Shown: positions 7,559 through 33,552, numbered from the stretch's first letter. The stretch: DNA of 64,000 nt from a virus (IMGVR_UViG_3300027763_000027:107917-171916), one strand, 5' to 3'. The notes: generated by a model not told the origin, from the sequence alone. Numbers and translations are program-made.

Positions 7559-8031
7559 ATGAAAAAACAGATTCCACAGATTAAATATAGCAATCTTAAA
7601 TCTATTACATCTTATGTTGCAGATTTACAAGGAGACGAGAAAGCATTTAAAATACTAAAGAATGTTGGCAAGAAGGTTATCACAGAAGAAGAATATATTA
7701 TGATTGGTTTTAGGCATATATTCTCAAATTCAAAAAATAATAAATTTGAATTGACTTCTCTTAATAAAAAGTTAAAATCTAAAAAGAGATGAAAAATAAA
7801 ACAATATCTAAAAACGACCCTTACCATCTTAAAGTAGGTAAATTCAAGAAAAAGAATGTATTTGATACTCAAGTAGATATGGGAGATCGTATGAGAGATT
7901 TTTTCCTTGGCTTGGGCAGAAGGGTAATTACAGAAGATGAGTTTATTAATATTGGTTTTAACTATGCACTAATTAAAGGCTTGGGCGAAGCGAAAAAAAC
8001 TAATAAAAAATCAAAGAAAGGTCGAAATTAA
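7559..8031 (+). CDS. Two tandem paralogous small basic proteins (7559-7792, 7789-8031)
   Basis: Shared G(K/R)(K/R)VITE(E/D)E(Y/F)IxIGF motif. Confidence 0.6.
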
Positions 8032-11848: not shown

Positions 11849-12367
11849 ATGAGCAAAACATCTAAATCTAAAAAAATCAAAATGCCAAAGATGACAGACA
11901 TCATGGCACAAATTAAAGCAGAGCAAATCAAAAAAGGAGATAGAGTAAAGTATCATTCTAATCTATTATTTGATACTCTAGCACAAACAAAAGTATCTTC
12001 TATTGAAGTATCTTTTGAAGGTTGCGGAGACTCTGGACAAATCGAATCAGTAGATTATACAGATGCTAATGGCAAGGGCATAGACGAAGCATATCTTGAT
12101 AAGGTTATTGTTAAAGGTTCAGCTAAAACATCCTATCACAAATGGGACGAAAAGACAAAAAAGCTAGTCAAGACAGAAGCCACAGAAGGAAATGTCAGAG
12201 AGATTATCGAAGAGATATGTTATGATAAGTTAGGTGCAAGCCACGGAGGTTGGGAGATTAACGAAGGTAGCTATGGAACATTCTACTTTGATGTCTCTAC
12301 TCGCAAGGTGCGTCTCGAATACAACGAGAGGATAGAGGAGGTTCGGACTAGTGAGGAGAGTTTCTAA
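11849..12367 (+). CDS. DUF6878-like protein
   Basis: FEGCGDSGQIE...GWEINEGSYGTF; paired with a DUF6915-like gene. Confidence 0.7.
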   Translation: MSKTSKSKKIKMPKMTDIMAQIKAEQIKKGDRVKYHSNLLFDTLAQTKVSSIEVSFEGCGDSGQIESVDYTDANGKGIDEAYLDKVIVKGSAKTSYHKWDEKTKKLVKTEATEGNVREIIEEICYDKLGASHGGWEINEGSYGTFYFDVSTRKVRLEYNERIEEVRTSEESF

Positions 12368-12717
12368 TGGCTAATCCATACCATCATTCTGTCTCTTCGT
12401 CAAAGAAGTGGGGTGGAACTCCAGAAGATTATCAGAAGATTCACGACTGGTTCGATGAATCAAAGATGATGATGGCAGACTTTAGACATCGTGCTTTGCG
12501 ACATCACGCCGAGGGTATCTTTATGTGTGAGAGGATATTTGGTCACACCATTACTTTAAGTAATGGAAAAAAGATTCCTACTCGTTGGGTTGGCGAACAG
12601 CATGTAGCAGAGGACTTGGGATTTATTCCATCTATGCAAGATTGGCTTAAACATATTATGCCAGAACCTTGGATGGGTAAGACAAAGAAACTTGACATAG
12701 AAAAGCAATTAGTATAA
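12367..12717 (+). CDS. DUF6915-like protein
   Basis: MANPYHHSVSSxKKWGG...IHDWFDESK...RHRALRHHAEGIF...EQHVxEDLG. Confidence 0.8.
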   Translation: MANPYHHSVSSSKKWGGTPEDYQKIHDWFDESKMMMADFRHRALRHHAEGIFMCERIFGHTITLSNGKKIPTRWVGEQHVAEDLGFIPSMQDWLKHIMPEPWMGKTKKLDIEKQLV

Positions 12718-15474: not shown

Positions 15475-15978
15475 TGAACAAATTACTAAAGAAATCAGTG
15501 ATAGGATTGTAGAATACAAAGCTCTTATGATTGAGCATGATAATAATCAAAGTGCAGTAGATGAATTAGAAAGTGCAATTCATGAACTAGATCATCTATT
15601 AAGGTGGATTAATGAGTAATACTCCTTTATTTTTCGCTATTGTATTAAGCATTGTTTTTGCTATTTATATATATTTTAGCTACAATGAATAAGATAATTA
15701 ATTATATTATATGGATAGCTTTTGGCCTTATTATATTTGGCTTATTAAGATTATTTTTATGAGCTTTGCACGAGATATACTAACAAATAAACCTGTAATA
15801 TGCTTTGATGAATTGCTACTAGCTAAATATGAAATAGATAATAGTGTAATAAGAGATAGTGAAGATACTAAAGAGTCTAGTTAATATAGTTTTGTTTTTC
15901 TTATTATTTCCTCTGATATTATTAAGTGATATGATAAATGATGATTGACATAATTTTAATTTGGGTTATAGTTGGTTT

Positions 15979-16353: not shown

Positions 16354-16388
16354 TTTGACATATATTTAATTTACTATATTATTAGCCT

Positions 16389-16841
16389 ATGAAGCTAATT
16401 AATACCACCTCATATTGTTCTGAAAAGTTAAAAGAAATTATCAAATGGTGTATGCCAGAAGGCGTATTCCTTAAAGACATTAGAAAGATAGATTTTGGTA
16501 ATACTAAATTAAATTGGCATGGCAGGGCTTGGGGAAGCATGAGAGTGCATATTGGTGTGCCACGATACGGCAAGTATATTCGTCCTTATAATACAGGAGG
16601 CAGAAGAGGCTATTTAAGTGTTGAAACATATAGCTGGGAAGAAGGTTTAATTGAATTAATTGCTCATGAATTAAGACATATATATCAATGGAAAAAAGGT
16701 AAGTATTATCATGGTATTAAAAAGATAAGAAAATATAACATGGGTACACGAGCTAAATTATGTGAAGTAGATGCTAGTTTATATGCTAAGAGAAAAGTAA
16801 GAGAGTATAGAAAAAGTAATTTTAAATTAAATTTGGTTTGA
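16389..16841 (+). CDS. HExxH zinc metallopeptidase-like protein
   Basis: LIAHELRH plus downstream CEVDA. Confidence 0.6.
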   Translation: MKLINTTSYCSEKLKEIIKWCMPEGVFLKDIRKIDFGNTKLNWHGRAWGSMRVHIGVPRYGKYIRPYNTGGRRGYLSVETYSWEEGLIELIAHELRHIYQWKKGKYYHGIKKIRKYNMGTRAKLCEVDASLYAKRKVREYRKSNFKLNLV

Positions 16842-16842
16842 C

Positions 16843-16917
16843 ATAAGTAGTTGATTATTATATAGTTACGTGGGCGGGCTCCCCGCGCGCGCAAGTCGTT
16901 GATAGGTAAGCATTTAC
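16843..16917. repeat. 75-bp bipartite palindromic element, copy 1 (extra solo arm at 16949-16975)
   Basis: ATAAGTAGTTGATTATTATATAGTTAC + 21 bp + GCAAGTCGTTGATAGGTAAGCATTTAC. Confidence 0.85.
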
Positions 16918-17025
16918 ACAACAACAGTAAAAAACTTTAACAGGATTGGCAAGTGTCTGATAATCAGAATCTTATGATACGAAAAAAGTTCTTGTCATAG
17001 TTTAAAAGTGTGGTATGATTAACAT

Positions 17026-17883
17026 ATGGCTAGAACAACAAAACCCGCTCAAAGTGTATACGATTTCGATGTACACCAAGAGCCACTCCTCACAACAGAC
17101 GGCAAGAGGACAGGATACTTCGGGATGGTACGCCGTGATACCCCCGAACCCATGACGCTCGGAGTTTGCACCGAGCAGTATGGTGTGGTGAAGAATGCAG
17201 ACCTCGTAACGATGGTCGAAGAGTCGCTAGCGCAGAACAGTATGCTCGCCAATCACAACTCCAAAAAGTTTGTGGTTCGTGATGGATCCCGTTTCTATGC
17301 TAGCTATGACTTCCCTGAGTTCAAAACTCAGTTGAAGCCAGTTGGCAAACGTGCGGTTGGTGATGTGCTTGGTTTGAGATTGACTGTTAACAACAGTTAT
17401 GATCGCTCCAGTCGCGTTTCCCTCTCGCTTGGCTTCCTCCGTTTGGTTTGTTTGAACGGAATGAAGTCGTTGACCAAAGAGTTCAGCATGACGAAGAGAC
17501 ACACTCTCGCCGTGAATCTGGATTTTATTGGTGATGCATTGGCAAACGCACTCTCCAGTGTTGATACCTCTGTAGCAATCTTCAACAGGTTGGCGCAGAA
17601 GGCAATCACTGATGAGCAGGGTTTGACATTGCTCACTAAGCTGGAAGAGAAGGCTGTCATCTCTGCTAAGGTGCGCGAAGGCATCGAAGCAGTTTGGCGG
17701 AATCCTTCTTACGAGGAGGATCATGATCGCAACCTGTACAACTTGTACAACGCCACTACGCAGTTTTTAACTCGTAATGTCGCTGACGAGCGGTACGAGT
17801 ATAGCGAGAGGGTCAGCACCGACTTGCTCAAAGTCTTCAGCGGAAAAACCCGCGACGAAGAGCTCCTGAAGCTGGTCGCCTAA
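17026..17883 (+). CDS. DUF932-family protein
   Basis: Y.VVKNxDL, DGSRF, NSYDRS and RLVCLNGM motifs; NLYNLYNAxTQFLT C-terminus. Confidence 0.85.
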   Translation: MARTTKPAQSVYDFDVHQEPLLTTDGKRTGYFGMVRRDTPEPMTLGVCTEQYGVVKNADLVTMVEESLAQNSMLANHNSKKFVVRDGSRFYASYDFPEFKTQLKPVGKRAVGDVLGLRLTVNNSYDRSSRVSLSLGFLRLVCLNGMKSLTKEFSMTKRHTLAVNLDFIGDALANALSSVDTSVAIFNRLAQKAITDEQGLTLLTKLEEKAVISAKVREGIEAVWRNPSYEEDHDRNLYNLYNATTQFLTRNVADERYEYSERVSTDLLKVFSGKTRDEELLKLVA

Positions 17884-17902
17884 ACTAAAACGAAACTTTA
17901 AC

Positions 17903-17935
17903 AGAGGCGGAGGGCAAAACCCTCCGCTTCTTTTT
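17903..17935 (+). terminator. Intrinsic terminator
   Basis: GCGGAGGG-caaaa-CCCTCCGC followed by a T-tract. Confidence 0.85.
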
Positions 17936-17953
17936 GCTTTTTTATTGACATGC

Positions 17954-18028
17954 ATAAGTCGTTATCTATCAAGTATTTACAGCGCGAGGGACCCTGCGTT
18001 TGTAACTCGTTATCTATCAGAGGCTTAC
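17954..18028. repeat. 75-bp element, copy 2
   Basis: 27+21+27 geometry; core AGCGCGAGGGACCCTGCGTTT. Confidence 0.9.
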
Positions 18029-18067
18029 AACACTTGACATTTATATTATTTATGTTATAGTTATGAG

Positions 18068-18409
18068 ATGAAAGCAAAGCATAAAGTATATTATAACTTA
18101 CATAAGAAGTGTCTTTCTATTATGCTTCGTGGAAAAGTATTAGAGCATAGCACAGAATTTTTTTTGCGTGATGTTGAGTTTAGAGTGAGTCAAGCAGGGC
18201 GCTCCAGGGTTCTAAAGGAACAAAGAAAGAATGTACACGCCTTTGTATGTGGGACTCCAGATGATGGTTGGCCTATTGACCAAAATGAAAGAAAGGTAAC
18301 CTATAATCCTTATAAGTATAACAGCTTTGTTTATTCTGATACCTTTGAACCAGTATATAAAGCAAAATGGGTTGGAGTTATTAATAGAGATATTTTTGTC
18401 TTGAATTAA
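18068..18409 (+). CDS. Conserved phage hypothetical protein
   Basis: VYYNLHK...FRVSQAGRxRVLKEQRKNVHAFV...YNPYK pattern. Confidence 0.7.
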   Translation: MKAKHKVYYNLHKKCLSIMLRGKVLEHSTEFFLRDVEFRVSQAGRSRVLKEQRKNVHAFVCGTPDDGWPIDQNERKVTYNPYKYNSFVYSDTFEPVYKAKWVGVINRDIFVLN

Positions 18410-18576
18410 TCTAAAAGTATAGTAAGATTATCTAATGGAAATCACTAAAGCCAAGAAACTAAAGGAGGGCGGTTACGCACTATACGCAACTGACCCTAAA
18501 ACTAAAACCGAAACCCAAGTTGGATATATTGGAGAAGGTCTGACTTTGGAAGCGTGGCTTCCTAAAGGAGTAAAAA

Positions 18577-18963
18577 TTGAAAACTCTTGAAGAAACATTT
18601 ACTAGCAGAGGCTTTAAGTTCACGATGGTTGGTCGTGATGGCGATGTTGCTATCTATAAAAAGCGACTCGATGAACCAGACAGCGAAGCTTTTAACTATG
18701 AAGTGATTGCTATTAAGCGTCACAATGGATATGAGATTGCAGGTGTCAAGATGCCTCCTGCTGAAATGTATCCGTCCGATAGTCAATGGGGCGATTGGGC
18801 TTATACTTGTATTGATCGTGAAGATGCAGACAAGCGATTCGTTCAACTAAAAGAAAAACTATCAGCTTATGTTGCAACATCAACTTTAGCTAATGGTGAG
18901 AAGCGTGGTCGTGGCCGTCCTCGCAAAATTGATTTGACAAAAACAGAACTTGTGGTATCATAA
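18577..18963 (+). CDS. Hypothetical protein with C-terminal AT-hook
   Basis: KRGRGRPRK motif. Confidence 0.65.
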   Translation: MKTLEETFTSRGFKFTMVGRDGDVAIYKKRLDEPDSEAFNYEVIAIKRHNGYEIAGVKMPPAEMYPSDSQWGDWAYTCIDREDADKRFVQLKEKLSAYVATSTLANGEKRGRGRPRKIDLTKTELVVS

Positions 18964-18967
18964 CAAA

Positions 18968-19204
18968 ATGACATATAAATGTGCAGTAAGCGGTGAAGCA
19001 CTTTCACCAGAGAGAGTTGAGGCTCTGCAAGTCCTCGGCGTTCCAGAGAGTCAATGGACAAAGAAAGAACATAGTCAAACAAAAAAACTACGAGCTGTAT
19101 ATGCTGGTGACGATGGCAGTAATGACATTGTTATTTGTGATGCAGTAGATGGTGGCTCGATGTTTGATAACGCAGTAGCGTTGGAGGTAGAAAATGAATC
19201 TTAA
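18968..19204 (+). CDS. DksA/TraR-like small protein (degenerate)
   Basis: CxxSGExLSPERVEAL resembles DksA CxxCGExIxxERLEA; leaderless promoter upstream. Confidence 0.45.
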   Translation: MTYKCAVSGEALSPERVEALQVLGVPESQWTKKEHSQTKKLRAVYAGDDGSNDIVICDAVDGGSMFDNAVALEVENES

Positions 19205-19391
19205 GTATATCGTTTTGCGAGACGGAATTCGTGTGAGTGAAGATATGCACACGAAGATTGAAGATGCTGAACACGAAGCGGAGTTTTGGCGTAAAGTCAT
19301 TCGCTCGTGGCCTGATGGAACGAAAGTTACCATCAAGAAAATCGGCGGATAACTTCGGAGGCTGACATTGAGCTACGGCTTAGTGTTGATT

Positions 19392-19482
19392 GCTAGGGTC
19401 GTCTAACTGGTTAAGACCCCACACTTATAATGTGGTCGCTCTAGATTTGGGCAAAATGTAGGTTCGAATCCTACCCCTAGTA
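19392..19482 (+). tRNA. tRNA with UAU anticodon (Ile, AUA-reading) and long variable arm
   Basis: Acceptor GCTAGGG/CCCTAGT, D-arm GTCT/AGAC, anticodon stem CCACA/TGTGG with loop CTTATAA, about 22-nt variable region, T-arm GTAGG-TTCGAAT-CCTAC. Confidence 0.8.
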
Positions 19483-19767
19483 TGTATTATATGTAAGTAC
19501 TTAATGTTCAACCAATTATTTTTATTGACTATTTTTCTGATTCTTGTATATTAAACCTATGACAAACAAAACAGCACCATTCTATGTGATGAATGTGTTC
19601 GGTCAAGACCGAGCCGTTATCCTAAACACCTCAATCCGTATGTGTACGCCTAAAGAGACTTGTTCTCTTAAAGAATTGGAGAACATCTCCAAGGCTTTTG
19701 GAGTAGAGTTCTTTCAAGTACCAAAACCTTCTAGCTTCCCAGCGAAAGTAGTAGCTTCGTGAAAGAT

Positions 19768-19843
19768 GGGCTTGTAGCTCAATGGTTAGAGCAGAGCACT
19801 CATAATGCTTTGGTTGGGGGTTCAAGTCCCTCCGAGCCCACCA
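19768..19843 (+). tRNA. tRNA-Ile2(CAU), lysidine type (Met less likely)
   Basis: Cloverleaf GGGCTTGTAGCTCA...CTCATAA...TTCAAGT...ACCA with encoded CCA; Ile-like acceptor. Confidence 0.85.
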
Positions 19844-19970
19844 CTTCTCCTTGTGCGGATTGGATGCTCAACTCTTATAGTAAGCATGCTGAGATAACTC
19901 AAGAAGATGTAGAATGGTATTTAAAAAACAAAAGCATTGACAACAAACAAAGATAGGATAAACTAAAACT

Positions 19971-20357
19971 ATGAAACTTATTAAACAAAACCTCGGTGCC
20001 CATTGGGTCATCGGAATCAAAGGCAACAAGGACGAGATTGAGCAGTTCCACAATCGAGTCTATAACTGGGGCGGAACAAACGGAGAGCTTCAATGGATGA
20101 GCAACGATTTTGCTTATTTTTGGATTACTCTAGAAAAGTTGGAACGAGTAATGTTTAAGTATGTTATGAATGGCATCACAGATAAACTTGGTAAGAAGTT
20201 TCGTGGTGCAAAAGGTGGATTAAAAGGAGTCGTATCTAATCGTGTCAAGAATACTATTGATAATATTCCAAACGAAACATTTGTTCGCACAGCACAAGTC
20301 GAGGATATATATTCTCTTGGAACAATCTCTGCGGAAAAATTAGATACTGATAGCTAA
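19971..20357 (+). CDS. Hypothetical protein, paralog of 27766-28221
   Basis: Shares YNWxGTNG and YSLGTISAEK. Confidence 0.7.
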   Translation: MKLIKQNLGAHWVIGIKGNKDEIEQFHNRVYNWGGTNGELQWMSNDFAYFWITLEKLERVMFKYVMNGITDKLGKKFRGAKGGLKGVVSNRVKNTIDNIPNETFVRTAQVEDIYSLGTISAEKLDTDS

Positions 20358-20363
20358 ACAATC

Positions 20364-20436
20364 CGCCTAGTAGCCCAATGGCAGAGGCAAACGACTTAAA
20401 ATCGTTCAAGTGTCAGTTCGAGTCTGACCTAGGCGA
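20364..20436 (+). tRNA. tRNA-Leu(UAA) with short variable loop
   Basis: CGCCTAG/CTAGGCG acceptor, AACGA-CTTAAAA-TCGTT anticodon arm, GTCAG-TTCGAGT-CTGAC T-arm. Confidence 0.85.
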
Positions 20437-20445
20437 AAATCTTTT

Positions 20446-20519
20446 GCTTTCATAGCTCAATTGGATAGAGCAACGGATTTCTAATCCGTAGGTTGCAGGT
20501 TCAATCCCTGCTGAAAGCG
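20446..20519 (+). tRNA. tRNA-Arg(UCU)
   Basis: GCTTTCA/TGAAAGC acceptor, ACGGA-TTTCTAA-TCCGT anticodon arm. Confidence 0.9.
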
Positions 20520-20533
20520 TGTAATAATATATT

Positions 20534-21172
20534 ATGATAAGAATACATCCAGTATATTCTTTACGTTTATTAAGGCGTTTAAATGTTCCTATTAATACAA
20601 TTATAGATGTTGGCGTACAATATTCTACTCCATGTCTTAAAAATACTTTTCCAGATAAATTACATATTCTATTTGAGCCTGCTGCTAATTATTGGAATAA
20701 AATAGAAGAATCTTATAAAGATATAAAATATATTCTATATAAAATAGCTTTATTTAAAGAAGATAAAAAAGTTAATTTGAAAAAAAATGGAGAGCTTTAT
20801 AGAATCACAGATAATAATGAAATCGGGTTAATAGAAGTGCAAGCTAATAAACTAGACACAATACTTAAGGATACAAACTTCGAAAAGCCTTATCTTCTTA
20901 AACTAGATGTAGACGGAGCAGAACTTGAAATATTAGAAGGCGCACAAGAAACATTAAAAGATTGCTCTACAATATTCATAGAAGCTCACCCAAGAGATTA
21001 TTTAGAAAGATGTAATGCAATAGAAAAATATGGTTTTAAATTATTTGATATCGTAGACTTTCGTTATCATGATAATAGACTAGCTCAATTTGATTTGATA
21101 TTTATAAAAAAAGATCTTCTACCACATAAAAAACAAAAATTTGATATAACTAAATGGAAAGCGCTAAGATAG
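20534..21172 (+). CDS. FkbM-family methyltransferase
   Basis: IIDVG, FEP, LKLDVDGAELEILEGA and QFDLIF motifs. Confidence 0.85.
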   Translation: MIRIHPVYSLRLLRRLNVPINTIIDVGVQYSTPCLKNTFPDKLHILFEPAANYWNKIEESYKDIKYILYKIALFKEDKKVNLKKNGELYRITDNNEIGLIEVQANKLDTILKDTNFEKPYLLKLDVDGAELEILEGAQETLKDCSTIFIEAHPRDYLERCNAIEKYGFKLFDIVDFRYHDNRLAQFDLIFIKKDLLPHKKQKFDITKWKALR

Positions 21173-21463
21173 CGCACAATAGAAGGATTCATCAAAATAG
21201 TAATTACACATCTAAAATAACTTTTACCAAATATCTAACAGGATAATATAAATACTTGAAATATTTCCTAAATGCCTGTAATATAAGTTGATATGAAACA
21301 TCAAAATAGATTAAGTAAAATACTTGAAAAAAGAATCTTACAAGACGAAGATCCCAAAATGATAGATCAAATAGATAAATTCTTAAATAATCTAGAAGTT
21401 GTTTTTGTTAAATGGGCTAAAGCTCATCCCAATTGGAAAGAATCAGAAGAATAATTAATTACT

Positions 21464-21538
21464 GTAACTGGTTTAGCATAAAGTAGTTACAAAAGATCCC
21501 TCCCTGCCGTCGTAAGTCGTTGACCATCAACGAGATTT
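21464..21538. repeat. 75-bp element, copy 3
   Basis: 27+21+27; core AAAAGATCCCTCCCTGCCGTC. Confidence 0.85.
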
Positions 21539-21587
21539 AACTAAAGATTTTTCTTGTGAAAAAACAAAGCTGTGGTATATTTAAGTA

Positions 21588-21853
21588 TGAACAAAATCAA
21601 ATTAGCAATCATATACGCAACCTCATATCTGAAACACTTCGTCCTTTTCCTTTTTGGGCAAAGGTATTTAATCGAATACAAACCCTACGGCAAGAATGAT
21701 GTCTATACTTACATCATCGGCAAGCCTTCTTCTCATACCATCAGCAAGGCAGGGAACAAGCTATTCACTAGCTTCTGCTTTTCTGGTCGTATGGATTCTG
21801 GCGTGAAGCAATTTCGCTACGATAGAATTACTGGCGGTCTCTCACCAGTCTAA
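21588..21853 (+). CDS. Hypothetical protein (start MNKIKL)
   Basis: Behind TTGTGA...TATATT promoter; ends KQFRYDRI (WYL-like C-terminus, weak). Confidence 0.55.
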
Positions 21854-21909
21854 CAACAGAGAGATTAGAGGGTTTATTATTCTGTTCCCTCTATCCTTCA
21901 TATAGAAAG

Positions 21910-21937
21910 GGCGAGGCCTAAAAACCTCGCCTTTTTT
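21910..21937 (+). terminator. Intrinsic terminator
   Basis: GGCGAGG-loop-CCTCGCC followed by TTTTTT. Confidence 0.85.
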
Positions 21938-21970
21938 ATTGCACATAAACAAAGTTATGTTAAGATAGTT

Positions 21971-22188
21971 TTAGTTCTTCGATATCAGAGAAGGTTGACC
22001 GCAAGGTTGCAGTTCTGGAAAGTTTCTAATGGAAACATTAGTTATATATAACGGAATGCCAATACTTCTCGAGCGAGTCTGACTAACTCCATAAGAGGAT
22101 GAACCTGCCAACGCCCAGAGTCTGAGGCAAATTAAAAGAGCAGGGTATTTCCTTTACGAATCATGAGCGTAAAGGGTCGAAGAACTAA
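21971..22188 (+). ncRNA. Candidate ~218-nt multi-helix structured ncRNA
   Basis: Perfect 12-bp terminal helix TTAGTTCTTCGA/TCGAAGAACTAA, GCAA and GAAA tetraloop hairpins, own promoter TTGCAC-N16-TAAGAT, 3' T-tract. Confidence 0.75.
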
Positions 22189-22364
22189 TTTTTATTACGC
22201 CATTTTTCTCTATGATGGCAAACCCAATTTAACAGAGCTTTTTCAAAACCAATATCGTGTCCTGCTTTTTCGCTTTCGATCCATTTGTGTTTTAATATCT
22301 CTTCGCGTTCTTCCATAAACTTTTTATACAACGCAGAAGATTCAAGTAAACCAGATACCCTCAT
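22185..22364 (-). CDS. DUF4032-like small protein (59 aa, missed by ORF track)
   Basis: Manual translation ...EEREEILKHKWIESEKAGHDIGFEKALLNW...; GTGTAAT motif upstream on the minus strand. Confidence 0.7.
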   Translation of the reverse strand: MRVSGLLESSALYKKFMEEREEILKHKWIESEKAGHDIGFEKALLNWVCHHREKWRNKN

Positions 22365-22402
22365 AACTTATATTACACTATATTGATTTAAAATCAAATA
22401 TT

Positions 22403-22477
22403 TTATCTCTTTGATAGTTAAGCACTTACAACGCAAGAGTCCCTGTCTTTATAAGTTGTTGATAATGAGAGAGTTAT
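22403..22477. repeat. 75-bp element, copy 4
   Basis: 27+21+27; core AACGCAAGAGTCCCTGTCTTT. Confidence 0.85.
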
Positions 22478-22665
22478 TACTCTCCCATATCACGAGCATG
22501 GTCAGCATCAAGCTCTGCCTGAGTTTCTAAGGCTCGTTCCATAGCTTGATCGTCCCACATTTCTTTTGCCCAGATTTTTAGTGTTTTTTCGTCATCGAAT
22601 ATGTTCATCATATTTACCTCCTTTCTTTCTATAGATTATCATATTTTTGTTTTATGTCAACATTT

Positions 22666-22740
22666 TTATTCTGTTGATTATCAATGACTTGTGAAGGCAA
22701 CCTCCCTCGTGCTATAAGTTGTTGATGGTGAATGAGATTT
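22666..22740. repeat. 75-bp element, copy 5 (between divergent promoters)
   Basis: 27+21+27; core GAAGGCAACCTCCCTCGTGCT. Confidence 0.85.
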
Positions 22741-22779
22741 ATTAGTAGACAAAAAAACAATTTCTGATATATTTAAGCT

Positions 22780-23619
22780 ATGAAAGTAAATGAAATCATC
22801 ACCGAAAAATTCATCGAAGCCCTCAACAAAGGTGTCATCCCTTGGCAGAAACCTTGGAAAGTTTTTGATCTCTGCAATGGAGTTTCAAAAAAGAATTATA
22901 GGGGGATTAATCAATTTTTGCTACGGATGCTCGCTTCTGATGATTTCTTTTTTACATTCAATCAGATTAAGGAGCTAGGTGGGAGAATCAAAAAGGGTGC
23001 AAAGTCTCACATGGTAGTTTATTACAAATTGCTCAAAACTGAAAGCAACAATGAAACCAAAACTTTTCCAATGATGAGATTCTATAAAGTTTTTGGGTTG
23101 AGTGATATTGAGGGCATGAAGTGGAAACAGCCCGAAGTTAAGAAGTTGGATTTTTCACCAGTAGAAGAAGCAGAAAAGTTGATCAACAAGTGCATCATTC
23201 AGATTAAACATGGTGGCAGTCGTGCCTGTTATTATCCGCAGGAGCATAAAATTGATCTTCCTCCAAAAGAAAACTTCACCAGCGTTGAGGAGTATTATTC
23301 CACAGCGTTCCATGAGATTGGTCACGCTATGCACAAGGCTACAAGCGATGAAGTGAAGAATGGATTTGGTTCACAGAATTATAGCAAAGAAGAATTGACA
23401 GCAGAAATTTTTGCGAGTCTCTGCCTTAACTTCTGCGGAATTGATTCAGAAAAATGTTTCAACAATTCTGCGAGCTATCTTTCGAGCTGGCTTCAAGTAT
23501 TAAAGAAAGACATGAACTTTATTATTTCAGCTTCTAGCAAAGCACAAAAAAGATTTGACGCTTTTATTGGTAGAAAAGAAAGCGAAGAGATTCCACAAGA
23601 AGAAGCTGTAACTGCTTAA
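22780..23619 (+). CDS. ardC: ArdC-like antirestriction/ssDNA-binding protein (DUF1738 + zincin-like domain)
   Basis: IPWQKPW, YRGIN, TFNQIKELGGRIKKG, YYSTAFHEIGH, YSKEELTAE, SASYLSSWL motifs. Confidence 0.9.
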   Translation: MKVNEIITEKFIEALNKGVIPWQKPWKVFDLCNGVSKKNYRGINQFLLRMLASDDFFFTFNQIKELGGRIKKGAKSHMVVYYKLLKTESNNETKTFPMMRFYKVFGLSDIEGMKWKQPEVKKLDFSPVEEAEKLINKCIIQIKHGGSRACYYPQEHKIDLPPKENFTSVEEYYSTAFHEIGHAMHKATSDEVKNGFGSQNYSKEELTAEIFASLCLNFCGIDSEKCFNNSASYLSSWLQVLKKDMNFIISASSKAQKRFDAFIGRKESEEIPQEEAVTA

Positions 23620-23682
23620 GTATTAACTACTTACGCAAGCGGGGTCCCTGCCTTCGTAAGTCATTGATAGTCAATGAGATTT
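23608..23682. repeat. 75-bp element, copy 6 (left arm contains the ardC stop codon)
   Basis: 27+21+27; core GCAAGCGGGGTCCCTGCCTTC. Confidence 0.9.
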
Positions 23683-23731
23683 AACTGTAAAAAAAACTTG
23701 TCACAAGAAAAAAAAGTGTTAATCTAATTCT

Positions 23732-24367
23732 ATGTTCAAAAACAAAAAACAAGCCGAAGAGATTGTAGGTACACTCTCAAAACCCTCGAAGATGCCTGGA
23801 TATGCTTATTCAACGCCCGCAAAGCGTTGTCTTATCGGGCAGAAAATGCGGAATGTTGTAGGAAGCATTTGTGCTTTTTGCTATGCTCTTAAAGGGCGTT
23901 ATGTTTTTCCTAATGTTCAGAAAGCCATGGAAAAGCGTTTCGCTTCTCTTACTAACGATTTGTGGGTAGATGCTATGACATACTTAATCGGCAAAGTTAA
24001 GAATCCACATTTCAGGTGGCACGATTCAGGAGACTTGCAAGGTGTGTGGCATATTGAAAAGATCGTGAAGATTGCAAAGAATCTTCCTCACATTTCTTTT
24101 TGGCTTCCAACTCGTGAATATGCTTTCGTTTCAACTTATATCGAACAAGGTGGAGAAGTGCCTAGTAATCTTACCATCCGTTTGTCTGCTCTTATGATGG
24201 ATGGCCCCGCACCCGTAGGAATTGCACAACGCCTTGGCTTGTGTGTTAGTGGTGCAAGCAAGTTAGGAAACTTTAACTGCCCATCTTCCAAACAAGGCAA
24301 CAAGTGCGGTGATTGTCGCAAGTGTTGGGATAAAAATGAGTTTGCAATCGACTATAAAAAGCATTAA
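23732..24367 (+). CDS. Gp88-like Cys-rich phage protein
   Basis: LSKPSKMPG, C..CYALKGRY, FRWHDSGD, WLPTRE, CGDCRKCW. Confidence 0.75.
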   Translation: MFKNKKQAEEIVGTLSKPSKMPGYAYSTPAKRCLIGQKMRNVVGSICAFCYALKGRYVFPNVQKAMEKRFASLTNDLWVDAMTYLIGKVKNPHFRWHDSGDLQGVWHIEKIVKIAKNLPHISFWLPTREYAFVSTYIEQGGEVPSNLTIRLSALMMDGPAPVGIAQRLGLCVSGASKLGNFNCPSSKQGNKCGDCRKCWDKNEFAIDYKKH

Positions 24368-24600
24368 GATGTCTAGATGACATTATTTTTAATCTTATTT
24401 ACCTTATTTACCATCGTACTTATTAAAAAATCATATGAATAAAATCGAAAAATTACTAAACGAAAACCTAGAATCTTTTTATCCTTGGAACGATTCTGAT
24501 AATCCTCCACTCGACACAAACAAAAGCTTTGTGCAAAAGCAGAGAGAGATTGACGAAGTGTTTGAAGGTTGGCGAGCGAGTATGTAAAAAACTTGCTGGT

Positions 24601-24675
24601 GTAAGTCTTTGATTATCAAGGATTTACATCGGCAGAGACCCTGCGGTTGCAAGTCGTTGACTATCAATAACTTAG
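24601..24675. repeat. 75-bp element, copy 7 (at the strand convergence point)
   Basis: 27+21+27; core ATCGGCAGAGACCCTGCGGTT. Confidence 0.9.
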
Positions 24676-24769
24676 CGACGCTCTATAATTGATCTTATTA
24701 AAGCATAAATTAATTGCAAAAAAACCAATCCAAAGTATGCATAAACACAGATTAAAAAAGTTTGCATAA

Positions 24770-25033
24770 TTATTCTCCACAAAGATTTTCGTCACCAGCC
24801 CAACCGAAATCTTCCATCTGGAAGCACCCGCCATTGTAATCCTCGTCAGTGCCGTGGCCAGCAGAAGCCATAGCAGAGTCGAAGTCGCCATCCATAGAAT
24901 CGTCTGGCTCGTTAGAGGTTTCGGATTTGATAGCGCGATCATCCTCGCGCATTTCGTTAAGGATGTCGCGCACATCCTGCGAGCCCAACATATGTTGAGC
25001 CATCCATTCCTTGAGAGACGCTTTGTAGTCCAT
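24770..25033 (-). CDS. Small acidic hypothetical protein
   Basis: DDSMDGDFDSAMASAGHGTDEDY; GGAGG upstream. Confidence 0.65.
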   Translation of the reverse strand: MDYKASLKEWMAQHMLGSQDVRDILNEMREDDRAIKSETSNEPDDSMDGDFDSAMASAGHGTDEDYNGGCFQMEDFGWAGDENLCGE

Positions 25034-25328
25034 ATTATTTTACCTCCACAATAGTTTCGACCGAATCGTAAACCCCACTCAACGCATCGAGCATCGAGTT
25101 AACCACATCATTGGAATTGATGTAGTCAAAGAACGCATTTGCGTCCGCATAAACTTCCTCGCAGGTTTCCGTCGCTAGGGATGTGATTTGATTTGTCATA
25201 GATTAAATGTATCACAGATTTGATTTAGCGCAAGATTTATTTTGTGAAAAAGGAAATAGAAGAATATCTAATAGCAAATAGCCTCGATCTTTTGGCTTCA
25301 TTCAGTTTTTGTCGCAAGATCAGCATTC

Positions 25329-25403
25329 GTAAGTTGTTGATAGTCAAAGGTTTACGCGCGCCCCCTCCCTGCGCTCGTAAGTCGTTGATGCTTAGAGGCT
25401 TAC
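25329..25403. repeat. 75-bp element, copy 8
   Basis: 27+21+27; core GCGCGCCCCCTCCCTGCGCTC. Confidence 0.9.
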
Positions 25404-25537
25404 AAGAGGTCTCTGAGATTCAAACAACTCGCAGAAAGATAGTAGAAAAATCTTTCACGCAGAAAGTTTTTTGCATAACCATTTTTCACGGCAAGTCTAT
25501 AAGTTTTTTTATTTAGTTTGAAAAGGATTTTTTTCAT

Positions 25538-25801
25538 TTAGTCTCCTTTATATTTCGAGGATTCGTTGAAACTTCCTATGAAGTTCATCGTTCCATTTTT
25601 GCGTTCTTCGCATTGTTTGAGAAGTTCGGGAGTCATTTCGACTTCGGTCACTTCATCATAAAAAGCTAGGACACTTCCAACACCAGAGATTCTGGAAAGG
25701 CATTTTTTGTTAGAGGTTGAATTGAGCATTTCGCAGATTGCGATATGGTTTTCGATTTGGTAGTATTTTCCTACTACGAGGTTTTCTATTATGTTTTTCA
25801 T
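25538..25801 (-). CDS. Hypothetical protein (start MKNIIEN)
   Basis: Minus-strand TTGACA promoter ending just before ATG. Confidence 0.6.
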   Translation of the reverse strand: MKNIIENLVVGKYYQIENHIAICEMLNSTSNKKCLSRISGVGSVLAFYDEVTEVEMTPELLKQCEERKNGTMNFIGSFNESSKYKGD

Positions 25802-25865
25802 ATACTTATAATCTATCACACTTTCCTATTTTGTCAAACTTTTTTTCTCTTTGATTATTAACGAT

Positions 25866-26084
25866 TTAGCGATACCAGACAAGAGAATCTGTATCGACAT
25901 TATACAATCCGCTACGAAGATAAATGGTTGTCCATTTACCTTTGTCCTCACCTTCGAGGATTTCAGCAGTTGCAGTCATAGTTTTCCAACCGATTGTAGA
26001 AGGGAAAACCTTTACGAGTAGTCTTTCGTGACCATATCGAAAAGTATTTTCATCTGTAGTTAGTTCTTTATTTATTGTTATCAT
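25866..26084 (-). CDS. Hypothetical protein, paralog of 26638-26913
   Basis: LVKV...TA...LEGxDKxK..TI shared; near-identical leader. Confidence 0.6.
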   Translation of the reverse strand: MITINKELTTDENTFRYGHERLLVKVFPSTIGWKTMTATAEILEGEDKGKWTTIYLRSGLYNVDTDSLVWYR

Positions 26085-26171
26085 TTTATTTTTTCTTTCT
26101 TTGTTATTTCTTATCTTGTTATAAGTATAGTTTAGCATATTTCAGAGAAAACGCAACAAAAATCTTCATTT

Positions 26172-26246
26172 AAATTTCATTGATCATCAACGAGTTACAA
26201 CGCAAGGGCCCCTGCGTCTGTAAGTCATTGTCTTCTAACAACTTAC
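26172..26246. repeat. 75-bp element, copy 9
   Basis: 27+21+27; core AACGCAAGGGCCCCTGCGTCT. Confidence 0.9.
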
Positions 26247-26260
26247 ATCAGCTAATTTTG

Positions 26261-26458
26261 TCAAACACCAAACTTGTTACGATATTGATTATATAGGTTT
26301 TGATATTCTTCGCCCCATTCTGATTCACCAGCTTGGGCGATAGCTTCTTCTATCTCTTCGAGTTGTTTTTGACCCCTACGATAGTAGTATGAGTCTTCAC
26401 TCATTTGGTAAGTCCAATCGTGATTCTTTAAGAGTTCTTCGAATTGTTGAATGTTCAT
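26261..26458 (-). CDS. Small conserved phage hypothetical protein
   Basis: LLKNHDWTYQMSED..YYRRG pattern. Confidence 0.6.
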   Translation of the reverse strand: MNIQQFEELLKNHDWTYQMSEDSYYYRRGQKQLEEIEEAIAQAGESEWGEEYQNLYNQYRNKFGV

Positions 26459-26637
26459 TTATTTATTTTCCATTAAGTTTTGCCTTTAGTAAGGCGTGAG
26501 CTTTAGCCTTTTCAGGATTATTCTTTTTCCATTCAGACCATCGCTTTTTGCGATTAGCCCAAAGAGCTTGATTTTTTTCTTTACGTTGAATTTCCCATTC
26601 TTGGGAAGTTAGTTCTTTTTTATTATCTTTATTCATT

Positions 26638-26913
26638 TTATTTACTTTCTTTCTGTACTAGTGAAGCATTGTTAAGGTTGATAGTTCCAACCTTATCTTT
26701 ATCTTTACCTTCTAGGAAGGTTACAACTGCAGTATTTGCAGAAGTTTTGTAAGAAACTTTTACTAGAGTTCCTTCGTAAAGGTATATTTCACCAAAGTAA
26801 GTTGGTGTATTGTTAGAGTTAGTTATGATGGATTCATTACTATCCATATTTTTTCGCATATTTTCACGCATTTGTTTTCGTTGAAAATTCCAATTTATCA
26901 TTCTATGTGTCAT
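26638..26913 (-). CDS. Hypothetical protein, paralog of 25866-26084
   Basis: LVKVSYKTSANTAVVTFLEGKDKDKVGTINL. Confidence 0.6.
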   Translation of the reverse strand: MTHRMINWNFQRKQMRENMRKNMDSNESIITNSNNTPTYFGEIYLYEGTLVKVSYKTSANTAVVTFLEGKDKDKVGTINLNNASLVQKESK

Positions 26914-27312
26914 TTTATTTTTTTCTTTCTTTGTTATTTGTTATCTTTTATCTTATGTATATAGTTTACCAGAAAATCCTCAAAAGTCAAATTATTTTTT
27001 TCATTTATTTTTCGTTGATTATTAAGCACTTAGGATTGAGTAAAAGATTCCTGCCATAAAAATTGCCCAAATTAGGATTGCTGTTGCGAAGATTCCTTCT
27101 TTGTTCATTTTTGTGTTTCCTCGTGAGCTACTTCGACTTTGTGTTCGTATTTTGCGAAACTTTCATCGAGTCTTTTTTGGGATTCTTCAACGGCTTTTTT
27201 GAGGTCAGCCGAGGCTTTGTCTAAATTTCCGAGGAGGATTTCTAATTTTGTTTTTCTTTTCATACCTATAATTTATCACATTTTAGAAATTTTGCAAGAT
27301 ATTTTTTCATTT

Positions 27313-27387
27313 AAATTTCATTGTCCATCAACGAGTTACAACGCAAGGGAGCGCCCCGTCCTAAGTCGTTGTTACTCAGCTACTTAC
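27313..27387. repeat. 75-bp element, copy 10 (right arm contains the SleB-like gene stop)
   Basis: 27+21+27; core AACGCAAGGGAGCGCCCCGTC. Confidence 0.9.
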
Positions 27388-27761
27388 AACTTATAGAACT
27401 TGTGGTTGCGTATTGTAGCCACTAGCCTTGCGTCCCTAGCCCACCTAGGAGCGACGCTGATAGCGTGGTAATGGTTTGCACCCTTTACAATGTCTGGCAT
27501 CTGTTTATGGATGACTAGGTCAGCAAGGTATAGAGCGTTCTTACCTTGTGCCGTTGCTAGTAGTTTCTTCTTTGTTGCCTCACTTACTCCACCATTCCAG
27601 AAGCTGAATTGTTTGGGTGATAAGCATACTTGTTTAGCTGATTGCTTACGCTCTACCATTCGTGTTTGTATGACGCTAGCAACGCCCGCCATTCCTTCGA
27701 ATGTCTCGCCCCTAGCTTCGCCTAGGAGCGTAAGTGCTACGATGAATAGTTCTGCTGTCAT
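27384..27761 (-). CDS. SleB/Hydrolase_2 cell-wall hydrolase
   Basis: LTLLGEARGE...VASVIxxR...KQFSFWN...GANHYHA...PRWA...HKFY. Confidence 0.9.
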   Translation of the reverse strand: MTAELFIVALTLLGEARGETFEGMAGVASVIQTRMVERKQSAKQVCLSPKQFSFWNGGVSEATKKKLLATAQGKNALYLADLVIHKQMPDIVKGANHYHAISVAPRWARDARLVATIRNHKFYKL

Positions 27762-27765
27762 AGGA

Positions 27766-28221
27766 TTAATCCCTTCCGTTACTTACTGCACCGCAGTAAT
27801 CGCTAGGTTTCTCTGCACTGATAGTGCCGAGGCTATACCCCTCGGAGCTACTCGCACCCCAAAGGAAGCAGGTCTGCACCATATCATCTATAATGCTCTG
27901 TGCCTTGTCTGTTGCGAGATCAAGGAGTCCACCTTTTCGACCCTTTGCGTTAATCTTGTTCACGAATGCGTGAAGGGCAACCTTAACAAGAGCCTTCTTC
28001 ACATCATCTGGATGAGCGTAGAAGTAAAACGCTTTGCCGTTGCCCATATCGTGCAACTTGCCGTTAGTTCCTTCCCAATTATAGATGCTATTGAAGAAGT
28101 GATTGATTTGTTTGATACTTCCTTCGAGAAGGTAAGCATTGTTTTCGCCGAAGGTTTGGTAACTGATTTTGAGGTTTTGTTTCATAGGTTCTATATTGCC
28201 TTTCTGGATTGGTTTCGTCAA
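27766..28221 (-). CDS. Hypothetical protein, paralog of 19971-20357
   Basis: YNWEGTNG and YSLGTISAEK shared. Confidence 0.7.
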   Translation of the reverse strand: MTKPIQKGNIEPMKQNLKISYQTFGENNAYLLEGSIKQINHFFNSIYNWEGTNGKLHDMGNGKAFYFYAHPDDVKKALVKVALHAFVNKINAKGRKGGLLDLATDKAQSIIDDMVQTCFLWGASSSEGYSLGTISAEKPSDYCGAVSNGRD

Positions 28222-28449
28222 GTAATTTATTCGATGATATGAGAGATATTCGTTACAGCGAGAAACGCTTGTTTCTCCTTCTGTAACTTCTCGTATTCGC
28301 TGGCTACTTTGCCAAGTTGGATTACTGCTTGGTTATGGTTGCTCATAGCTTTATCTAGGTTAGCTAGGAGTCTTTCGAACTTATTCATTTTTTTCTTCAT
28401 ACCTTTAATCTATCACAGAATAGGAATATCACAAGATATTTCTTCAGTT

Positions 28450-28476
28450 AAATTTCATTGAATATCAACGACTTAC
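28450..28476. repeat. Solo 27-bp arm closing the island (other solo arms near 19493, 25843, 27007)
   Basis: AAATTTCATTGAATATCAACGACTTAC. Confidence 0.75.
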
Positions 28477-32141: not shown

Positions 32142-32776
32142 TTATTTTCCTTTATTTTATAATCATAATTATCACTATCTTCAGTAACCCATTTGGGGCT
32201 ATTTTCAGCAGTATAAATATGAGAATTTATTTTTCTTTGCAACAATAATTCATTTGGTTTTGTTGCGAAGCTTGGATCGAACACCCTAATCCTATTATTA
32301 GGTTGTATTGCAAAATTACCATTATCGAGTTTTATAACATGACCAGCTTTATGTTGATCTGCTCTTTGACTAAATCCAAAATTTAATTCATTATAATCGC
32401 TATGAGCCCAGTCGAGAGTAAATAAATAACGGCCCATATATTCTTTACCACTTCTACCAGTATATTTAATTATTTTATTTTCTAGCAAATAAAAATTTGT
32501 TACAGATATATGATAACTAAAGCTATCCCAAAGCTCTAATTCAGCAAGCTCCATATCTGGAGCATCTTCTATAGAACAAAAAGCACTTATAGGCGCATGC
32601 CACCAAATACCACCATCTTCCATAAGAAAATTAAAAAGTGGGACTTGGCTAGGTAAACTTGTAACTCCAAAAATTAAACATTTATATTTTTTATCGAAAC
32701 TATCTTCTTGATTTCTTAAATAATTTCCTCTTACAAAGGCTTCAATTGGAGGAATATTTGCGTTTAGATATGCCAC
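32138..32776 (-). CDS. Conserved phage hypothetical protein
   Basis: MAYLNANIPP...LELWDSFSY...YLFTLDW...GNFAIQPNNR family recalled from aquatic phages. Confidence 0.75.
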   Translation of the reverse strand: MAYLNANIPPIEAFVRGNYLRNQEDSFDKKYKCLIFGVTSLPSQVPLFNFLMEDGGIWWHAPISAFCSIEDAPDMELAELELWDSFSYHISVTNFYLLENKIIKYTGRSGKEYMGRYLFTLDWAHSDYNELNFGFSQRADQHKAGHVIKLDNGNFAIQPNNRIRVFDPSFATKPNELLLQRKINSHIYTAENSPKWVTEDSDNYDYKIKENK

Positions 32777-32832
32777 AGCTAATTTATTTACACATAATAT
32801 TAAATTATAGTGTAAATATGAATGTAAGCTAC

Positions 32833-33552
32833 ATGTCTAAAAAGCATAAACAAAAAGAAGATAAGTCCGCTCCCGTTCCTCAAAGAGATAAAATTGAAGG
32901 TTTCTTAAATATTCGAGAATTACAATGGACAGATAATCAGAAAACATTCATACAACTTCTTCAAGATAAGAGCACTAAAATAGTCCTTTGCAAAGGTCCA
33001 GCTGGTACAGCTAAAAGTTTACTGAGCGTTTATGCTGCTTTAAATGCTATTAATAGTAAGAAAATAGGCGAAATATTCTATGTTCGTAATCCCGTAGAGA
33101 GCTCTTCTCATAATCTCGGATTTCTTAAAGGTGACCTTCATAGTAAACTTGATCCTTATTTGCAACCCCTTATGGATAAACTTCACGAACTACTACCTAA
33201 AGGACAAGTAGACATGCTTTTGAAACAAGAAAGAGTAAAAGGATTACCAGTCGGATTCTTAAGAGGATTAAGTATCAACGCAAGTTATATAATATGCGAC
33301 GAAGCCCAAAACTTAAGCGTAAATGATCTTTTACTTATTAAAACTAGAATGGGTAAATTTAGTAAGCTTATATTAATAGGAGATATACGTCAATCTGATA
33401 TTAAGAATAGTGGTTTTGAAAAAATTTACAACCTTTTTGATGATAAAATAAGTCGAGAAAAAGGCATACATACATTTAAATTTCGAACAGAGGATATCAT
33501 GAGAAATGATATTCTAGCTTATATTATAGAAAAATTCGAAGAACTTAAATAA
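32833..33552 (+). CDS. phoH: PhoH-family ATPase
   Basis: GPAGTAKS Walker A, LGFLKG, FLRG, DEAQN, TRMG, GDxxQSD. Confidence 0.92.
   Translation: MSKKHKQKEDKSAPVPQRDKIEGFLNIRELQWTDNQKTFIQLLQDKSTKIVLCKGPAGTAKSLLSVYAALNAINSKKIGEIFYVRNPVESSSHNLGFLKGDLHSKLDPYLQPLMDKLHELLPKGQVDMLLKQERVKGLPVGFLRGLSINASYIICDEAQNLSVNDLLLIKTRMGKFSKLILIGDIRQSDIKNSGFEKIYNLFDDKISREKGIHTFKFRTEDIMRNDILAYIIEKFEELK

Follow-up and report, generated by a model that had tools for sequence, protein, structure and literature searches.

The window analysed here comprises the last 64 kb of IMGVR_UViG_3300027763_000027, a viral genome of 171,916 bp that is complete according to CheckV and has a GC content of about 30%. Between positions 16,843 and 28,476, an accessory or anti-defence island is punctuated by ten copies of a 75-bp element, hereafter units E1 to E10, each made of two 27-bp imperfect palindromes, the arms, on either side of a 21-bp core; five further arms stand alone. 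The island encodes SprT/DUF3920-like, DUF932 and mycobacteriophage L5 gp82-like proteins, four tRNAs, an FkbM methyltransferase, ArdC, a GP88-family protein and a SleB-like hydrolase, together with many further small open reading frames (ORFs) without known family. It belongs to an early region of about 43 kb on the + strand (94-137 kb of the genome, or about -13500 to 29500 in window coordinates), in which most ORFs have no known family, as indicated by a Pfam survey of 105 early ORFs and by PHROGs, where ten conserved small island proteins found no match. The virus has no close cultured relatives: megablast returned tRNA matches only, and its terminase shares about 24% identity with Bacillus phage terminases. 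No close bacterial relative of the DUF932 protein was found that might serve as a clue to the host. As for the element itself, it has no match in cultured phages, and we found nothing comparable to it in cultured phages, Rfam or the literature searched.

All ten units and all five solo arms announced by the first-pass annotation lie exactly where it had placed them, and the 27/21/27 geometry is exact in every unit. The arms are AT-rich, with the consensus GTAAGTCGTTGAT-N-ATCAACGACTTAC, and enclose a GC-rich core. A symmetrised position weight matrix, trained on the 20 paired arms, was scanned across the whole genome. The training arms score 16.6-30.9 bits and the solo arms 13.0-21.3 bits, and the top scores in composition-preserving shuffles are only 10.6-16.7 bits. 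Just two sites above 13 bits lie outside the known arms, at window position 7854 (16.8 bits) and, beyond the window, at genome position 94358 (17.8 bits), so that the earlier statement that the window holds no other copies was essentially right. The stop codons at 16841, 23619, 25866 and 27384 do adjoin or overlap arms. That the sequence drifts between copies while the geometry stays fixed is true of this genome, but not across its relatives, where several arm-to-arm spacings are found.

Related loci were retrieved from IMG/VR via PhoH and ArdC; all of them bear elements, and together they provided 212 distinct paired units. The arm-to-arm spacing is 48 bp in most genomes and 47, 49, 50 or 51 bp in others, and it is nearly uniform within each genome: a single value holds for at least about 90% of the units in 30 of the 36 loci that have four units or more. 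The element family extends beyond this phage, since a pattern scan of IMG/VR found at least 117 stretches with the element pattern; among the matches listed, many have 40-49% GC, and in these the units measure 50 or 51 bp, the arms (GTAACTCGTTGATACTCAACGAGTTAC) are nearly perfect and the cores very rich in GC. The carriers examined range from 30 to 49% GC, and the arm sequence is nearly constant across that span. The genes most commonly found on their contigs form a PhoH/zinc-ribbon/sigma-like/ERCC4-domain block, which in this window stands shortly before the terminase gene, and because this block is the most widely shared we consider the carriers to be one broad clade. In the 48-bp lineage, the core motif (C)TCCCTG(C) is found at a fixed position, with CCCT at unit positions 39-42 in 90 of 172 units and its mirror AGGG at positions 34-37 in 54; in 21 units both are present and form GCAGGG-N-CCCTGC-like dyads. 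The 50- and 51-bp genomes have GCGGGG-type cores and lack the CTCCCTG motif. Both the motif and the length of the core are thus lineage-specific, with orthologous arms retained, which calls for a co-evolving partner or for homogenisation among copies. In the 50-bp lineage (L184, L189, L123), a CTAACAG repeat, often doubled, occurs just upstream of units; it is absent from this window.

As every arm is nearly palindromic, the units might be thought to act as folded strands, whether as single-stranded DNA (ssDNA) hairpin promoters or origins of the Frpo/ssi kind, attC-like sites, REP/REPIN mobile hairpins, or RNA terminator or processing hairpins. Several units lie at gene 3' ends, T-runs follow some of the bacterial copies described below, and E7, alone among eight units folded, forms a full-length 75-nt end-to-end hairpin. 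However, half-site complementarity within arms is 0.618 over the 212 units, against 0.638 after permutation, complementarity between the arms of a unit is 0.616 against 0.643 for random pairs, and with G-U pairs allowed the values are 0.737 and 0.742. Mirrored arm positions display no excess mutual information, and no compensatory changes were found in the 212 units, whether Watson-Crick or with G-U pairs. No two of the eight units folded alike, their z-scores ranged from +0.19 to -4.2, and no fold was common to them; Rfam matched this DNA at tRNAs only, and no gene for a Y1 transposase was found. The permutation tests, the mutual information and the folding all speak against a hairpin or cruciform, which we rejected. 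An intrinsic terminator was rejected as well for the phage copies, since no T-run follows them and E2 sits directly behind a separate, canonical terminator. Judging from the absence of base-pair covariation and of a common fold in these sequences, the arms are double-stranded protein sites, not hairpins, and what is conserved is their consensus. Folded-strand explanations are thus disfavoured, and we hold them to be very unlikely.

Which protein might occupy these sites? The arm consensus reads WATCAA-N4-TTR on both strands, that is, as two mirrored sites of the integration host factor (IHF) type that share a TTG-N5-CAA centre. When IHF binds, DNA is kinked at two places separated by 9 bp, the WATCAR element lying between the kinks and the TTR element beyond them (10.1101/382655). 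A 9-bp interval also separates the invariant TT (positions 9-10) and AA (positions 18-19) steps of the arm, with TAA/TTA four bases beyond. The exact place of the kink within WATCAA follows the IHF-H' crystal structure. By this comparison, the arm has the appearance of an IHF-type site with a symmetry that would suit a homodimer. The first-pass annotation had assigned the IHF consensus WATCARNNNNTTR to each half-arm; this is correct for the consensus, whereas individually only 14 of the 50 half-sites fit it in register. IHF-consensus matches have a density of 1.28 per kb in the island, compared with 0.34 per kb genome-wide. Likeness to FNR, Fur, CIRCE or dif sites was dropped owing to misfits of half-site spacing or sequence.

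The palindrome also occurs in bacteria. A search for the strict arm pattern across 185,579 species genomes returned 26 bacterial stretches where about two are estimated by chance, all of them in Fibrobacter, Bacteroidota, Akkermansia or Verrucomicrobiales, and Lentisphaerota; three more contigs, with paired arms, look like misbinned phage DNA. The chromosomal copies are solitary and intergenic. Several are directly 3' of a tRNA gene or have an integrase gene as neighbour. Three Akkermansia genomes share a conserved copy upstream of argS, and four Fibrobacter genomes have one near an M23 peptidase gene. With a relaxed pattern, each of five such genomes has three to six matches, and the reversed control has none. 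No HU/IHF gene was found in this phage genome or in three further complete genomes of the clade. Because the palindrome is present in bacterial chromosomes and no HU/IHF gene was found in the phage genomes searched, a conserved host factor of these phyla is the likely, and most economical, binder of the arms. The chromosomal copies also suggest where the hosts of the phages are to be sought.

Two other features accompany the palindrome. Directly beside it, a second motif, TGGAACAT, or the palindromic form of that motif, ATGTTCCACATGGAACAT, is present in bacterial chromosomes from two phyla (L243:3067-3130, L244 and L250 in Akkermansia; L238 and L245 in Fibrobacter), and these sequences are also found in a phage contig of the clade (L189:8140-8180); the GGAAC of the second motif resembles the -35 box of ECF-sigma promoters. 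Furthermore, tRNA genes end right at an arm, or within about 10 nt before one, both in phage islands (L096:8629-8660, L097, L113, L142:820-845 and 4027-4052, L162:11673-11698) and in bacterial chromosomes (L237, L246, L248, L249, L251). This means either that tRNA genes act like cassettes or that tRNA-linked integration sites are marked by the palindrome.

The position of the arms relative to promoters is strikingly regular. Many elements had been described as lying shortly upstream of -35 boxes, and the relation proved sharper than that: each of the 13 promoter-proximal arms of the window, among them the five solo arms, is followed after 5 or 15-16 nt by a -35 hexamer (table 1). The 13 promoters all have a 16-nt spacer, 11 have TG before the -10, their -35 hexamers are weak, and the ATG is mostly 6 nt past the -10. 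In relatives, 83 of the 106 oriented units, whose outer arm ends in GAGATTT or GAAATTT, have a promoter, with a -35 that starts 15 nt (61 cases) or 5 nt (21 cases) past the arm; other offsets found in relatives are 55, 64-66 and 70-74 nt. The start codon is exactly 6 nt past the -10 in 58 of these 83, which implies leaderless mRNAs. Among the early-region promoters listed, we compared eight arm-linked with about 21 arm-less ones: the -10 is extended in seven of eight against one of 21 (Fisher p = 4e-5), and an exact TTGACA is present in one of eight against 13 of 21. The offsets of 5 and 15-16 nt differ by about one helical turn and put the arm centre near -54 or -64 from the inferred start, a position that fits an upstream architectural activator.

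Table 1. Features of the island and its surroundings, in window coordinates
Feature	Position	Strand	Details
Accessory/anti-defence island	16389-28400	.	12 kb; 37-40% GC against 28-30% in the genome
Unit E1	16843-16917	.	symmetric arms, 19.4 and 22.8 bits; begins 2 nt past stop of SprT/DUF3920-like gene
Solo arm	16949-16975	+	promoter-proximal; -35 TTGTCA at 16992, 16 nt downstream
DUF932 gene	ATG 17026		ATG 6 nt past -10; served by promoter with -35 at 16992
Canonical intrinsic terminator	17903-17931		directly ahead of E2
Unit E2	17954-18028	+	right arm 5 nt before -35 TTGACA (18034) of gp82-like operon
Solo arm	19493-19519	+	10 nt past tRNA-Ile; 5 nt before -35 TTGACT (19525); ATG 19559
Unit E3	21464-21538	+	oriented; right arm ends GAGATTT; -35 TTGTGA 15 nt downstream; ATG 21587
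59-aa gene	starts 22364	leftward	promoter next to E4 left arm
Unit E4	22403-22477	-	left arm proximal to leftward promoter, -35 at 22397-22392
44-aa gene	22477-22611		3' end abuts E4 right arm
Unit E5	22666-22740	.	between divergent promoters; left arm serves leftward promoter, -35 at 22660-22655
ArdC promoter	-35 TAGACA at 22746		ATG 22780; served by E5 right arm
Unit E6	23608-23682	+	left arm overlaps ArdC stop codon
GP88-family gene	ATG 23732		-35 TTGTCA (23698); E6 right arm 15 nt ahead
Unit E7	24601-24675	.	no promoter; between convergent genes 24435-24587 (+) and 24770-25033 (-)
Unit E8	25329-25403	.	no promoter within 100 nt; between two leftward transcription units
Solo arm	25843-25869	-	overlaps stop of gene 25866-26138; 5 nt from leftward -35 TTGACA (25837-25832)
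Unit E9	26172-26246	-	oriented leftward; arm starts AAATTTC; -35 TTGCGT 26156-26151, offset 15
Solo arm	27007-27033	-	16 nt from leftward -35 TTGACT (26990-26985)
Unit E10	27313-27387	-	oriented leftward; -35 TTGCAA 27297-27292, offset 15; ATG 27263, 6 nt past -10
E10 right arm	within 27313-27387		overlaps stop of SleB-like hydrolase gene
Solo arm	28450-28476	-	island end; -35 TTGTGA 28434-28429, offset 15; ATG 28400, 6 nt past -10
PhoH gene	32746-33552		
Large terminase gene	36755-38599		

The + strand of the early region as a whole (94-137 kb of the genome) is dense with TTGACA-16/17-TATAnT-N6-ATG promoters. Dozens of early promoters have an ATG exactly 6-7 nt past the -10, for instance at 15945-15972 and 16355-16382, a pattern that implies that most early mRNAs would be leaderless. 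A Shine-Dalgarno-like 4-mer precedes only 28% of all genes, against 10% for a control interval. A likeness to T7-type promoters (ACGACTTAC) was dropped; no gene for a single-subunit RNA polymerase was noticed, although no dedicated search was made.

The distinctness of the arm-linked promoters might suggest another binder, namely a dimeric regulator encoded by the phage itself, be it an activator that makes the island a delayed-early class or a repressor that shuts it off, with the core read by the regulator or by a second, co-evolving phage protein. The elements are indeed confined to one island, and the remainder of the 43-kb early region is transcribed from consensus promoters without arms. 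The lineage-specific spacings and core motifs suggest a co-evolving partner, and the many early ORFs without known family could hide such a regulator. Nevertheless, the arms barely change over a clade of 30-49% GC, and their presence in the chromosomes of four bacterial phyla points to a host protein. Moreover, no helix-turn-helix or ribbon-helix-helix family appears among the 25 of 34 matched Pfam families listed for the 105 early ORFs, and the ten small island proteins have no PHROGs match. We thus regard a phage regulator as unlikely.

Signals for DNA entry or packaging had been considered as well; the units would then pause entry or direct packaging, in the manner of the repeat-rich first-step-transfer boundary in phage T5. 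They do cluster in one early, anti-restriction-rich region, and in a clade genome with direct terminal repeats all arms found with the relaxed pattern lie at 19-32 kb of 166.5 kb. However, another complete genome of the clade has two separate clusters, and the terminal repeats of an assembled contig do not fix the physical ends of the DNA. Neither the register kept at each promoter nor the cassette-wise distribution is needed for a single stop or pac signal, and the idea, which found no support, appears extremely improbable.

Comparison of gene orders between relatives showed how the units are distributed among cassettes. In maps of 21 loci, the + strand half of the island is conserved and the - strand half is highly variable. 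Cassettes such as the 44-aa gene are present or absent jointly with one unit. Upstream of ArdC, the right arm stays with ArdC and the left arm varies with the left neighbour, which is the promoter of the 59-aa gene, the 3' end of a tRNA or the promoter of the 44-aa gene. As segment-by-segment identity correlations were too noisy, we replaced them with a flank-conditioned profile, based on pairs of units that have one flank in common and not the other. Homology inherited with the left flank persists across the left arm as far as about position 40, and that of the right flank is detectable from about position 61 on. The switch therefore falls in the right-hand portion of the core or where the right arm begins; taken together with the gene-order comparisons, it is placed at unit positions of about 41-50. 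Blastn breakpoints, which cassette shuffling at the elements might be expected to concentrate there, show no excess, with 31% at elements against 30.5% in other intergenic DNA. At L087:12485-12718, L104:13454-13688 and similar places, two full units are found in tandem, 84-85 bp apart and with opposite core orientation; they look like emptied cassette sites.

The island and its surroundings contain several other genes of interest. Two paralogues without known domain, at 19971-20357 (+) and 27766-28221 (-), belong to a family of 38 members in the 21 loci; the islands of most relatives have between one and three of them, and both orientations occur. A conserved island protein encoded at 18577-18963 (+), for which neither Pfam nor PHROGs has a family, has the C-terminal sequence KRGRGRPRK, an AT-hook-like minor-groove DNA-binding motif, and may be a DNA-binding protein. 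Sigma70 region-2 matches were found in two phage proteins, one of 227 aa (34052-34735, +) that sits in the conserved PhoH/zinc-ribbon/sigma-like/ERCC4 block upstream of the terminase gene, and one of about 202 aa (genome 79146-79334, -). Finally, DUF6878 and DUF6915 families are present among the early ORFs and, with ArdC and DUF932, lend the region a plasmid leading-region flavour; placing them at 11849-12717 is a guess, as the survey does not match ORFs to families.

The switch of homology within the core is what would be expected if the units were att-type sites, at which a recombinase, either host-encoded or of an unrecognised family, would cut the GC-rich core with the palindromes as accessory bending sites, thereby exchanging parts of the anti-defence island in an integron-like manner. 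In phage lambda, the attP core is likewise flanked by the IHF sites H2 and H'. The arms travel with their own flanks, cassettes differ by a gene plus one unit, and the core motif keeps a fixed position in either orientation; motif and length are common within a lineage and different between lineages, as they should be if crossover regions must match. The bacterial palindromes directly 3' of tRNA genes and beside integrase genes point in the same direction. Nonetheless, no tyrosine (PF00589) or serine (PF00239) recombinase, Y1 (HUH) transposase (PF01797) or DDE (rve) domain was found in this complete genome, nor any integrase (PF00589) in the three further complete clade genomes. The lack of a recombinase, first noted for the window, thus extends to the genome, and the proposed look beyond the window for a tyrosine recombinase or an IHF/HU homologue yielded neither. 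In addition, the 6-mer CCCTGC/GCAGGG is present in just six of the ten cores of this window, breakpoints do not favour elements over other intergenic DNA, solo arms act as promoter partners without any core, and the tight helical register with promoters is unexpected for recombination sites. Att-type sites are therefore doubtful in our opinion. In a variant that we consider rather more far-fetched, large lytic phages would have a cassette-exchange system not yet described, and the units would be its att-like sites, with a host bender on the palindromes and an unrecognised, lineage-specific recombinase or nuclease on the core, and promoter-equipped anti-defence cassettes and tRNA genes would be swapped between co-infecting phages. 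As regards the cassette shuffling envisaged by the first-pass annotation, cassettes do come and go with one unit and homology does switch in the core, as with the PeSLs of T4-type phages (see below), but its ssDNA-hairpin basis, its recombinase and an enrichment of breakpoints did not materialise.

Our best explanation, which has about an even chance of being correct, is that the unit is a double site for a host factor and constitutes a rigid boundary module that supports or insulates early accessory transcription and is also a joint for cassette exchange, PeSL-like in role. Each arm would be a double-stranded site for a dimeric host DNA-binding protein, most likely a bender of the IHF/HU type because the consensus corresponds to two mirrored IHF-type half-sites with a common centre. 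A single arm at one of the two offsets from the -35 would be the basic accessory of promoters that combine a weak -35 with an extended -10. Where cassettes abut, the facing arms would be held at a genome-specific distance by the GC-rich core and its lineage-specific motif, and a rigid two-bend module would result. Such a module might boost or insulate the transcription of early accessory and anti-defence genes. Since the modules are repeated in register, they might also be the places where cassettes are joined, lost or exchanged by recombination between copies. Among the earlier proposals, an IHF/HU-folded nucleoprotein module at the first-expressed genes is thus the best-supported part, given a consensus conserved without covariation, a mirrored IHF-type site, chromosomal copies and arms that keep helical register with promoters.

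Several observations weigh against this explanation. In relatives, no promoter lies within 100 nt of 58 of the 101 symmetric units, and E7 and E8 have none in the window either, so helping promoters cannot be their whole role. A host factor alone leaves the lineage-specific motif and length of the core unexplained, and the range of spacings from 47 to 51 bp amounts to about 0.4 helical turn between lineages, so that no single bending geometry is conserved. The identification of IHF stems from a match to the consensus, and the arms of this genome are degenerate, with few half-sites in strict agreement. Breakpoints, as mentioned, are not enriched at the elements. Finally, some chromosomal copies in Bacteroidota are followed by T-runs and could be terminators there.

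If the host-factor explanation is true, the element offers a means, at the level of sequence, of following how anti-defence islands are organised and renewed in large uncultured phages. It would also define a 27-bp site for a sequence-specific host factor common to Fibrobacterota, Bacteroidota, Verrucomicrobiota and Lentisphaerota, and suggest a host range for a phage clade without cultured member. The lineage-specific length and motif of the core represent a clean, testable case of a DNA site co-evolving with a partner. Should the units turn out to be an att-like exchange system, they would be equivalent to integrons in function while lying outside all known recombinase families.

The units share features with several known systems. 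REP/BIME sequences are extragenic mosaic repeats of GC-rich hairpin palindromes and a central segment; the RIP/RIB class binds IHF at a central site, and REPs are associated with a RAYT (Y1) transposase. Our units are likewise extragenic mosaics of palindromic units and a central segment, but their layout is the reverse, with AT-rich arms devoid of covariation, and PF01797 is absent. The single-strand promoters (Frpo/ssi) in leading regions of plasmids are long hairpins with stems that recreate -35 and -10 boxes, whereas here ordinary duplex promoters lie outside the unit and there is no common fold. The pdif modules of Acinetobacter plasmids and integron attC arrays also split a region into small mobile gene modules by means of many short palindromic sites; they need XerC/XerD or IntI, acting on 28-bp dif-like sites or on folded ssDNA attC sites, respectively. 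In our case no recombinase and no folded-strand signature were found: unlike in attC, the sequence consensus is conserved and the pairing is not, and an IntI-type PF00589 protein is absent. Similarly, dif, lox or res sites would require a cognate PF00589 or PF00239 gene, which was not found in this phage genome, although a host enzyme is possible.

In the leading region of the IncN plasmid pKM101, the CUP repeats, which are direct and measure a few hundred bp, carry a promoter and operators for plasmid repressors. There too, a repeated upstream element heads each anti-restriction or early gene, and our island likewise resembles a leading region, with its ArdC and DUF932 genes; CUPs are not known to be 75-bp twin palindromes. 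IHF sites occur upstream of promoters, as at lambda pL, and flank recombination cores, as H2 and H' do. The resemblance to our arms includes the WATCAR-N4-TTR consensus and the 9-bp interval between invariant steps, which corresponds to that of the IHF kinks (10.1101/382655). It extends to their location about 55-65 bp upstream of the inferred transcription start, in helical register, and to the flanking of a core of about 21 bp by two sites. In natural IHF sites the two sides differ, one bearing the consensus and the other an A-tract. Our arms, in contrast, are mirrored, as expected for a homodimer, and binding to them is predicted from sequence. Furthermore, the palindrome-bearing bacteria belong to the Fibrobacterota-Chlorobiota-Bacteroidota (FCB) and Planctomycetota-Verrucomicrobiota-Chlamydiota (PVC) groups, whose IHF/HU proteins may have a specificity of their own.

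In role, the units are closest to PeSLs (promoter-early stem-loops), regulatory cassettes of T4-type phages that combine a promoter with an RNA stem-loop terminator (PMC2839356; PMC4122927). They differ from them in that twin 27-bp protein-site palindromes are held at a rigid distance around a GC-rich core, without hairpin signature or U-tract; besides, over half of the symmetric copies are promoter-less, and the palindrome is also found in bacterial chromosomes. Like PeSLs, they are short, repeated intergenic modules with strong sigma70-like early promoters, 13 of which are arm-linked in this window. Like PeSLs, they occur in hyperplastic regions of large lytic phages, where they separate small genes that are not essential, and relatives of these phages differ by the insertion, deletion or replacement of repeat-bounded cassettes.

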